From a virus (Duplodnaviria; Heunggongvirae; Uroviricota; Caudoviricetes), in the IMG/VR virus record IMGVR_UViG_2526164633_000032, positions 1-39,549 of that record: a DNA stretch of 39,549 bases. One strand, 5' to 3'. A program made the position numbers. Shown here in pieces: positions 9,001 to 12,000 of the stretch; the stretch's first letter is position 1; each line of letters starts with the position of its first letter.

Positions 9001-12000
9001 CTACAGAAGGAACCCACGGAACAACTACACCTTGTGCATTTTTTAAGGCGAAATAAGCACCATACGGAACGAGGTCGCCGGGGAAATATCCCTTAATGGC
9101 TTCCATTCGTGCCGGGTACTGTCCTTCAGGAACCAGCCAGCAGAATTGGTTTTCGCCGTTCCACCCGCGTCGAGCAACTTTCTTGCCATCCTTCAGCCAC
9201 ATCAGCGCGTCAGAAAAGTCGGCTGCTTCAAGGTCGATTTCTTCTTGTAGAGTAGCGATACCGCCAGCAGAAATAGTTACGTCCCTGGCTGTAATGAATG
9301 TCACCCCATTGTGACCTTCAATGCTGAGCGATACCCCATTTTCGAAGAAGTCGTTAGTCCGACTAAAGCCTTCTTCAAATGTTTTTTCTGGTGAATAGGA
9401 CAGAGATCCGTCCTCATAAGCGACCAGATATCCGCCAATTTCTGGTCGGTGTTTTTGCAAAAACATTTTATCAACATGGACTTTTACCCCTTCTGGCTCA
9501 ACGACTTCGATGTTGCAAAGAAGGACCACATCCATTAGGGCGATAATTTCGATATCTTTGATTTTTGAGGCGCGAACTGTTTTATGGCTTTTGTATTTTG
9601 GAAGTGCCGTCAAAAGCTCTTTCGTTGTCATGTTATTCATAGTCTTTCCTCTGCTTAAAACCTGATGTCTTGCGCCTTCAGGTGGGTCAGGAATGTTTTC
9701 CCACCAGCGAAAGCAATATCTCGGGGTGTTCTTTTCGTGAAAAGCGCGTGCCATTGCCAACTTTGGCGTTTGTTTGCGAGTTCGTGCTTTTGTCGGCGTC
9801 TGGACCACCGCTTTTCTTTCAGTCGTTTTTTACACATTCAAAACGGAATATCGTCGTCAAAGTCCATTGGAGGTTCGTTATTGGCGTTGCTCTGAGGTTT
9901 ACCGCCACCGCTGTATTGCTGGTGGTTTTGAGGTTGGTTTGATTGCCCCCAGCCATTTGAGGACTGTGAATCGTCACGGCGAGCGCCGATCATTTGCATG
10001 GTGCCGCCCTGGCTGACGATAATTTCCGTCGTGTAACGTTCTACACCGGCGTCATCTGTCCACTTACGGGTTTTAAGTTTCCCTTCGATGTAGACCTGAG
10101 AACCTTTTCGTAAATATTCACTCGCAATTTCAGCAAGTTTTCCGAACAAAACGACTTTATGCCATTCTGTTTGCTCTTTCTGTTGGCCCGTTTGCTTGTC
10201 GCGCCATGATTCATTCGTTGCGATGCTGAGTCTTCCGACCGCTCCGCCATTTGGTATATACCTGATCTCCGGGTCTTGCCCCAGGGTACCAATCAGGATG
10301 ACTTTGTTTACACCGCGTTGTGCCACTTATCTTACCTAATAAAATAAATTAATTAGAGCAATAATGTATATCTTTGAAACGTAGCTAACAAGTGATTTGC
10401 ATTATCCTGTGCCTTCTAAAGGGATCGAGTCAGTCGGTATTGGCTGTGAATGGGTGTTTGTCCTGGAGCGTAAAAAATTCGCTTATGAGGTCTTTATGAA
10501 GGGAAAAACAGCCGCAGGAGGCGGTGCAATTTGCGCTATCGCGGTGATGATTACCATCGTGATGGGTAATGGCAATGTGCGAACCAACCAGGCGGGGCTT
10601 GAGCTTATCGGAAACGCTGAAGGTTGCCGACGTGATCCATACATGTGCCCGGCGGGTGTATGGACTGACGGGATTGGTAATACACACGGGGTAACGCCTG
10701 GCGTGCGAAAAACCGACCAGCAAATCGCCGCTGATTGGGAAAAGAATATCCTGATCGCTGAACGCTGTATTAACCAGCACTTCCGGGGCAAAGACATGCC
10801 CGATAATGCCTTCAGCGCAATGACAAGCGCGGCATTCAATATGGGATGCAATAGTTTACGGACCTACTACAGCAAAGCGCGAGGCATGCGAGTCGAAACG
10901 TCCATCCACAAGTGGGCGCAGAAAGGGGAATGGGTGAATATGTGTAACCATCTCCCTGATTTCGTGAACAGTAACGGCGTCCCCCTGCCCGGGTTAAAGA
11001 TTCGCCGTGAAAAAGAACGCCAGCTTTGCCTGACGGGGCTGATCAATGAATAAACTCCGGCAGCTCCGCCGACTTTCGACAATGAAGTTATCGCTGGCGG
11101 CGATAGTTTTCGACTCGATTTTCATGGCGGTATATGTGCTCAATGAGACGTGGCCACTGGAACCGCTATTATATGCCGGGCTTCGGCTGTGCCTGACATT
11201 TTTGAGCATGGCTGCAAGATTGATGCAGCAGAAAGAAACCGCTTCAGATTGCCCACGTCGCGCGGTGCGCAAATATATGGCACGCAGACGAAGGCGATAA
11301 TAGTTAACGATAACCCCGGCAGCCGCCGGGGTTATTTTTGATGGTTATTTAAACGGGTTGATTGAATTATTAAACGTGATGATGCTTGTCTCACGCGGTG
11401 CCTGGATGTTAGCCGCTTGCGGAACCTCCTTAATTTTCTTGGTGACAGGCAAGTTGCGTGCGCCAACTTTGATCAGAGATTCGAAAAGCGTGGCCACGAT
11501 TTTTGCATCACCAGGTTCTTTGAGGCGGAATGCGTCTTTTTGGGCGGCGGAGACGAAAATCGGGAGGTTATCCAGTTCGTCTTGCATCGCTGCCAGCACA
11601 TCGTCGCGGATACCCGCTGTTTTCTCCAGCAAAGCGATTCGCGCTTCAGCATCTGCGATCTTGGCCATTGCTTCGAGGTGGCGGCCCTGGCTTTCGAGTA
11701 GTGCGGTTTCCAGTTCTGCCGTACGCTCTGTCGCCTCCACCATCATTTCCAGTTCAGCCATTTTGCCGTAATGGGATATAACTGCCTGCACTGACTCGTC
11801 GGAGTACCCATGCGCCGCCAGGGACTCTGCCAGTAGAGATTTAGAATCCGCGCTTTCAAACATTCCGGCGCTGGCAGGATGATCCAGACTGATATAGTTC
11901 GGCGTTGTCACATAATCCACACCATGGAAGCTGGTGGTTACAGCGATTTTCCCGGACTCACGCCCGCCAGTGGCCCAGCTCCAGCCACCAGCTCGGCTTT

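Follow-up and report, generated by a model that had tools for sequence, protein, structure and literature searches.

C1-operator-like sites upstream of ssb, ref and c8 in a P1-like plasmid prophage

Introduction

The C1 repressor of phage P1 recognizes asymmetric 17-bp sites of the form ATTGCTCTAATAAATTT, which are spread over the P1 genome. Asymmetric multi-site repressors, that of P1 among them, have reportedly been discussed in the literature. The genome of mycobacteriophage L5 contains many dispersed asymmetric repressor sites, the stoperators, which are found in the short gaps that separate co-transcribed genes and have the same orientation as transcription.

The sequence ATTGCTCTAATAAATTT is given verbatim as the C1 operator consensus in PMC8546580, which also describes Lxc as a corepressor that enhances the binding of C1 to its operators, as does a note in the P1 record. 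Both ssb and ref are C1-controlled genes that are induced at the lytic switch, and at ref a C1 site occludes a promoter of the gene, which is induced lytically (PMC4713147). For c8, a probable role in establishing lysogeny has been described (PMC8201110).

Here, we analyzed a stretch of 39,549 nucleotides from an IMG/VR virus record (IMGVR_UViG_2526164633_000032), referred to below as the window. Judged from its sequence, the window belongs to a P1-like plasmid prophage (Punavirus): in the ssb-lyz-pro and mat-ref-c8-cre regions, it is approximately 98% identical to phage P1 and to close relatives, among them P7, RCS47 and SJ46. We mapped the window by BLAST against P1 (AF234172), relative to which its orientation is reversed. 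The map is as follows (window coordinates first).

1–8137: cin to hxr; P1 32380–24246
8168–8952: isaA; P1 22531–21747 (the adjoining 8953–9636 is without a P1 match)
9637–15435: ssb, lyz, pro, prt and the 5' end of darB; P1 21740–15943
15436–29027: 13.6-kb insertion (transposon) in darB; no P1 counterpart
29028–35227: remainder of darB, ulx and lxc; P1 15951–9752
35228–36172: about 0.9 kb replacing res/mod; no P1 counterpart
36173–39548: mat, ref, c8, cre, cra, up to lox; P1 3413–35

Results and Discussion

Operator-like sites in the window

A first-pass annotation had placed copies of the 11-mer ATTGCTCTAAT upstream of ssb, ref and the gene next to cre, each within a 17-mer said to agree with a C1 consensus at 14 to 16 positions. 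A search of the whole window returned exactly these three copies (10352–10362, 37613–37623 and 38088–38098) and no others, all of them on the minus strand. The number expected is 0.02, and three copies were reached in none of 100 dinucleotide shuffles. This consensus is correct, since ATTGCTCTAATAAATTT is the published form, and the 20 monovalent C1 operators in the annotation of P1 AF234172 have it as their majority sequence. The three 17-mers, ATTGCTCTAATTAATTT at 10346–10362, ATTGCTCTAATTGATTG at 37607–37623 and ATTGCTCTAATTCATTG at 38082–38098, match it at 16, 14 and 14 of 17 positions, respectively.

We scanned the window with two position weight matrices. Matrix 1 was built from all 20 annotated P1 operators and was used with a cut-off of at least 17 bits and 300 dinucleotide shuffles; it identifies five sites at or above the cut-off, compared with 0.063 expected. 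Matrix 2, which guards against circularity, was built from the 17 operators situated in other parts of P1, and its E-values per window were calculated from the exact score distribution. The sites, all on the minus strand, score as follows.

10346–10362, ssb site: matrix 1, 28.1 bits; matrix 2, 27.2 bits; E = 2e-5
36941–36957, mat site: matrix 1, 22.2 bits; matrix 2, 21.0 bits; E = 4e-3
37607–37623, ref site: matrix 1, 22.4 bits; matrix 2, 20.2 bits; E = 7e-3
38082–38098, c8 site: matrix 1, 21.5 bits; matrix 2, 20.2 bits; E = 7e-3
14196–14212, darB site: matrix 1, 17.4 bits; matrix 2, 17.8 bits; E = 3e-2

The three sites that carry the 11-mer are thus far above background (E from 2e-5 to 7e-3). 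They do not make up the complete set, as the mat site (Omat/Op2b, 36941–36957) was absent from the first-pass list because its core is the alternative CATGCACTAAT. Each of the five sites has the orientation of the gene that directly follows it.

In a leave-one-out evaluation, the accepted P1 operators score between 29.5 and 16.5 bits, with the exception of the weak Oc1c (9.5 bits) and Oc1b (−3.6 bits). When P1 itself is scanned, a gap after 15.5 bits parts annotated operators from background, and the only sites above this gap without an annotation are the counterparts of the c8 and darB sites. The sites at 10346–10362, 37607–37623 and 36941–36957 occupy positions homologous to P1-defined operators, whereas those at 38082–38098 and 14196–14212 do not. 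We put the probability that the sites at ssb, ref and c8, together with the mat site, are operators of the main immunity repressor C1 at roughly 85%.

Sites homologous to P1 operators

The ssb and ref sites are base for base the P1 operators Ossb/Op21 and Oref/Op2a; both are already catalogued in P1. With two of the three first-pass sites accounted for in this way, the finding is mostly an ordinary one. C1 binding and repression at ssb and ref are taken from published P1 work and, given the sequence identity, would apply to the window as well. The features at ssb are as follows.

10346–10362, minus strand: Ossb (formerly Op21), monovalent C1 operator ATTGCTCTAATTAATTT, 17/17 identical to P1 AF234172 21015–21031
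10363–10391, minus strand: promoter P2ssb (formerly Pr21), positions transferred from the P1 annotation 20986–21014
9838–10326, minus strand: ssb, phage single-stranded DNA-binding protein, the gene under Ossb, 100% identical to P1 Ssb

Ossb is also identical to 'operator 21' in AF125376. P2ssb consists of a −35 element TTGTTA (10386–10391), a 17-nt spacer and a −10 element TACATT (10363–10368), and it equals the commonest variant in the family. The operator abuts the promoter, starting one base past the −10 element, and ends 19 nt before the GTG start codon of ssb. The 17-mer, both promoter hexamers and the spacing to the ssb start codon are those of P1; no difference can be detected, and this is one and the same operator, here in a relative of P1. 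Homology to P1 places Ossb directly downstream of the P2ssb −10 element and over the transcription start, so that bound C1 would cover the start site and thereby block RNA polymerase.

All 71 P1-like IMG/VR loci have Ossb at position −36 relative to the ssb start, a figure that says little by itself because the whole intergenic region is almost invariant in these loci. Two further loci have only 69% Ssb identity and largely different flanks, and here ATTGCTCTAATATTTAT is still located at −36.

The features at ref and mat are as follows.

37607–37623, minus strand: Oref (formerly Op1/Op2a), monovalent C1 operator ATTGCTCTAATTGATTG, 17/17 identical to P1 1962–1978
36948–37508, minus strand: ref, RecA-dependent HNH endonuclease, the gene under Oref, 186 aa, two differences from P1 Ref
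36941–36957, minus strand: Omat (formerly Op2/Op2b), C1 operator CATGCACTAATAAATAT, identical to P1 2628–2644

According to the transferred P1 annotation, Oref occupies the whole 17-nt spacer of promoter P2ref. By homology to P1, C1 would thus be bound between the −35 element and the extended −10 element (TGCTATAAT) of this promoter. The H-NS motif CGATAAA, which has been described in PMC4713147, is situated just upstream of P2ref/Oref in both the window and P1. For Oref, 78 of 80 related loci have a matrix match of 14 bits or more.

Omat, whose core is the alternative CATGCACTAAT, overlaps the stop codon of ref and precedes mat. It scores 21.0–22.2 bits, and 56 of 80 related loci have it. This count is taken from matrix matches and not from a MAFFT alignment of the 1.7-kb c8-ref-mat region, because insertions made the Omat region align poorly. 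The 17-mers of Oref and Omat are identical to those at the homologous positions of P1, as is the extended −10 element of P2ref, and these operators show no difference between P1 and the window. Compared with the P1 annotation, the mat gene of the window contains a frameshift, and its 3' end has been replaced.

A candidate operator upstream of c8

The gene next to cre, for which the first-pass annotation had proposed an operator-like site, is c8; the site has a score like that of Oref and is retained across the family.

38082–38098, minus strand: candidate C1 operator ATTGCTCTAATTCATTG, co-oriented with c8, 20.2 bits (equal to the Oref score)
37754–38065, minus strand: c8, putative lysogeny-establishment gene and presumed target, 103 aa, homologous to P1 C8

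The C8 protein has no NCBIfam match and only a sub-threshold Pfam match. The site is located inside the 50-nt gap between the cre stop codon (38116–38118) and the c8 ATG (38063–38065), 17 nt past the former and 16 nt before the latter. The geometry resembles that of Ossb, with the site at −33 compared with −36 from the start codon and in the same orientation as the gene. Based on its score, position and conservation, 38082–38098 is a good candidate for a C1 operator of c8, a reading that we favor with some reserve, and it is probably a reasonable new member of the C1 operator class.

Of 80 IMG/VR loci, 77 have a matrix match scoring 14 bits or more at −33 of c8. We counted core variants among 79 distinct haplotypes, which were obtained from 160 loci: the core reads ATTGCTCTAAT in 71 haplotypes, ATTGCTATAAT (the form found in P1 and P7) in 5, ATTGCTCTGAT in 2 and ATTGTTCTAAT in 1. 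The entropy per position is 0.056 bits in the core, 0.70 bits in the 18 nt that separate it from the cre stop codon and 0.08–0.14 bits in the flanking coding sequence, and the core is retained in three unrelated spacer backgrounds. There is clearly a phylogenetic footprint that begins exactly at the 5' edge of the candidate operator. Conservation continues from the site down to the c8 start codon, across GGTGA and the ribosome-binding region, and part of the conservation of the site could serve translation initiation. A search of viral sequences with the most divergent C8 returned nothing below 86% identity, and the scan of genome_contigs contributed three c8 loci.

The P1 counterpart of the site, 1485–1501, is without an operator annotation, and no operator is annotated at this position in the P1, P7 or phiW39 records. 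An operator at c8 is likewise unmentioned in PMC8546580, PMC4713147 and PMC8201110; the original P1 genome paper lies beyond the literature covered. The cre-c8 spacer of P1 and P7 resembles that of the window in the position of the site (−33 of c8), in length and in the ribosome-binding region downstream. However, P1 and P7 read ATTGCTATAATTATTTG, in different flanking backgrounds, whereas the window has the core ATTGCTCTAAT. At operator position 7, where a C is nearly invariant, the two phages have an A, and this gives rise to TGCTATAAT. This C-to-A change, together with the lack of an annotated operator, fits a c8 site that is non-essential.

The sequence created by this change leads to a different explanation, namely that the motif is an extended −10-like element (TGnTATAAT) or belongs to the region where c8 translation is initiated, and that its likeness to the C1 core is incidental. 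P1 and P7 have a perfect extended −10 sequence at this position, the identical sequence beside Oref is the annotated −10 element of P2ref, and conservation extends as one block from the site through GGTGA to the ATG; the missing operator annotation in P1, P7 and phiW39 would also be in line with this explanation. In 71 of the 79 haplotypes, however, the hexamer reads TCTAAT, with a C at the second −10 position, where sigma-70 promoters have an essential A. Furthermore, the base that corresponds to the n of TGnTATAAT is invariant at c8, whereas it varies freely at the true −10 element of P2ref. The conserved 11-mer is the operator core in 11 of 11 positions, and the 17-mer equals the Oref score with the independent matrix. 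We consider a promoter or translation element with incidental likeness to the C1 core unlikely, and the C1 operator remains the preferred reading of the c8 site.

One point against an operator is that our scan detected no sigma-70 promoter overlapping the c8 site at the thresholds used; the only c8 promoter proposed for P1 is the predicted Pc8, which is located about 60 nt upstream inside cre and is weak, with a 20-nt spacer. If C1 binds to the c8 site, c8 would be switched off once the repressor accumulates. Repression could involve either the occlusion of an unmapped promoter or a block of read-through transcription from cre, and in the latter case C1 may act as a roadblock between cre and c8. 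The literature covered contains no description of such a roadblock action of C1. The layout of the c8 site, in a 50-nt gap between cre and c8 with no recognizable promoter, and that of the site inside darB (see below) are similar to the layout of the gp71 stoperators of L5, but the repressor and the motif are unrelated.

A more far-reaching interpretation is that the site represents a genuine family-wide C1 operator, 'Oc8', which has been missed in the annotations of P1 and P7, and that most natural P1-like plasmids shut c8 off via C1 after lysogeny has been established. The sequence data leave us evenly divided on this point. If it is true, P1 and P7 would be atypical of their own family at the c8 site, and c8 expression may differ in these two laboratory phages. 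Binding of C1 to the c8 site would add a member to the P1 regulon and would assign a plausible regulatory logic to a poorly understood gene that is thought to act in the establishment of lysogeny: c8 would be expressed early and then be silenced by the maintenance repressor.

The 'second copy' at ref

The first-pass annotation had also described a weaker second copy that overlaps the ref site.

37594–37610, minus strand: ref 'second copy' ATTGCTATAATTGAGCC, includes the extended −10 element TGCTATAAT of P2ref

The match to the consensus is indeed 11/17, but a status as operator does not follow from it. The sequence scores 10.0 bits with matrix 2 (E = 1.8 per window), which is at background level, and it contains the −10 element of P2ref, TATAAT at 37600–37605, which corresponds to the annotated P1 −10 element at 1980–1985. 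Among approximately 80 related loci, this TATAAT is nearly invariant and the base just 5' of it is C, T or A; in C1 operators, the position that matches this variable base is an invariant C. Judged by this pattern of variation, 37594–37610 is the extended −10 element (TGnTATAAT) of P2ref and not an operator.

We also considered that 37594–37610 might be a genuine second C1 half-site that forms a bivalent operator with Oref, similar to Oban-ab or Oc1-ab. The second copy and the core have ATTGCT-TAAT in common, the copy overlaps Oref by 4 nt, and Oc1b, the weakest annotated half-site, scores even lower (7.4 bits with matrix 1). Nevertheless, the annotated bivalent operators are inverted overlapping 17-mers, whereas the ref pair is a direct repeat, and Oref is monovalent according to the P1 annotation. 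Together with the background score, the coincidence with the P2ref −10 element and the variation among relatives, which is that of TGnTATAAT and unlike that of an operator, this makes a half-site very improbable, and we rejected it. The explanation that an A+T-rich word simply recurs by chance in intergenic DNA can practically be dismissed: the motif is A+T-rich, as are the intergenic regions of P1, but the shuffles, the matrix counts and the E-values of the individual sites all argue against chance, the positions coincide with annotated P1 operators, and they are kept in 71 to 80 related loci.

An operator-like site in darB

The fifth site identified by the matrices is unannotated.

14196–14212, minus strand: operator-like site ATTGCCCTAATGTATTT, 17.4–17.8 bits, E = 0.03

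It is located within the 5' end of darB, in antisense orientation to this gene, and is co-oriented with prt, approximately 146 nt upstream of the latter. The site is also present in P1 at 17166–17182, where it is without annotation. Its position is kept in 77 of 80 loci, 12 of which have the canonical core ATTGCACTAAT; this conservation is weak evidence, because the site lies within coding sequence.

Extent of the repressor network in the window

The corepressor gene is encoded in the window.

34981–35229, plus strand: lxc (formerly bof), corepressor, 82 aa, 100% identical to P1 Lxc

The Lxc protein would strengthen the binding of C1 to the sites described above. The first-pass annotation had suggested that the repressor network of the prophage is intact around the insertion. 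This holds for the cis sites, since Ossb, Oref and Omat are unchanged relative to P1, and for lxc; beyond these, the suggestion goes too far because c1 lies outside the window. The window stops at P1 position 35, on the lox side, so that c1 (P1 93231–94082), its operators, coi and immI are all outside. In a search for the complete element, no record in the 'plasmids' or 'ecoli_genomes' collections spans the junction between the transposon and darB. Between the insertion in darB and the closest candidate site lie 1.2 kb, and Ossb is 5 kb away from the insertion. The cis elements of the P1 immunity network have survived both this insertion and the replacement of res/mod, a result that is routine for annotation.

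The c8 region

At the c8 site (38082-38098, minus strand), a candidate operator for the main P1 repressor C1 that lies 16 nt upstream of c8, the classical reference phages P1 (positions 1485-1501) and P7 both read ATTGCTATAAT, and ATTGCTCTAAT is found in 71 of the 79 family haplotypes. The change in P1 and P7 creates a perfect extended -10 element, TGCTATAAT. Since the P1/P7 variant is found in two different flanking backgrounds, it either has two origins or was transferred by recombination.

Inside c8 itself, we found a strong promoter-like match that is directed towards ref; the P1 annotation does not list it.

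37962-37989, minus strand: promoter-like match inside c8 (TTGTCA, 16 nt, TAGAAT; 10/12)

The ref leader

Downstream of the ref promoters, the leader contains a hairpin with a run of T's, which precedes the ref ATG (37508).

37522-37539, minus strand: hairpin rich in G+C, then a run of eight T's, GGCGGCCATTAGGCCGCC TTTTTTTT

This structure is consistent with the attenuator that Windle et al. 1988 name in their title. Just upstream of Oref, the C1 operator in the spacer of promoter P2ref, the window also contains CGATAAA, the H-NS motif of the ref regulatory region (PMC4713147).

An operator-like site and a transposon in darB

A further operator-like site, unannotated, is situated within the first 70 nt of darB in the same orientation as prt, with the late promoter LPpro approximately 85 nt downstream.

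14196-14212 (P1 17166-17182), antisense to darB: C1-operator-like site ATTGCCCTAATGTATTT, 17.4-17.8 bits with the operator weight matrix

The position is kept in 77 of 80 relatives, some of which carry the canonical core ATTGCACTAAT. It could be an additional C1 site or merely conserved coding sequence.

The same gene is interrupted by a large insertion.

15436-29027: Tn21-family transposon of 13.6 kb, inserted in darB

Its inverted-repeat ends start with GGGGTCGTCTCAGAA and agree with each other over ∼36 nt with two mismatches, and the element is flanked on both sides by the 5-bp target duplication CAGAT. The left end carries merR and merT, and the ORFs also include ones that are, by size, merA-like (561 aa), integron-integrase-like (337 aa) and transposase-like (990 aa). 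The exact transposon/darB junction has no match in the plasmid and E. coli genome collections searched.

mat and other segments that differ from P1

Relative to the P1 annotation, mat (36142-36869) has a 1-nt frameshift after approximately codon 37, and the rest is intact from an internal start (MDKKICVV...). Either Mat is N-terminally truncated in the window, or the P1 mat start is annotated too far upstream. The final Mat residues also differ from those of P1, because the DNA downstream of mat has been replaced.

The window lacks the P1 segment for EcoPI restriction-modification (res/mod; ∼6.3 kb, P1 3413-9752, including IS5), and ∼0.9 kb without a P1 match (35228-36172) takes its place.

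35312-35920, minus strand: 202-aa ORF within the replacement segment

Neither isaB nor the IS1 element found in P1 is present at 8137-9637. The ∼680 nt adjoining isaA (8953-9636) have no P1 match and instead match vB_EcoM-Ro157c2YLVW, SJ46 and RCS47.
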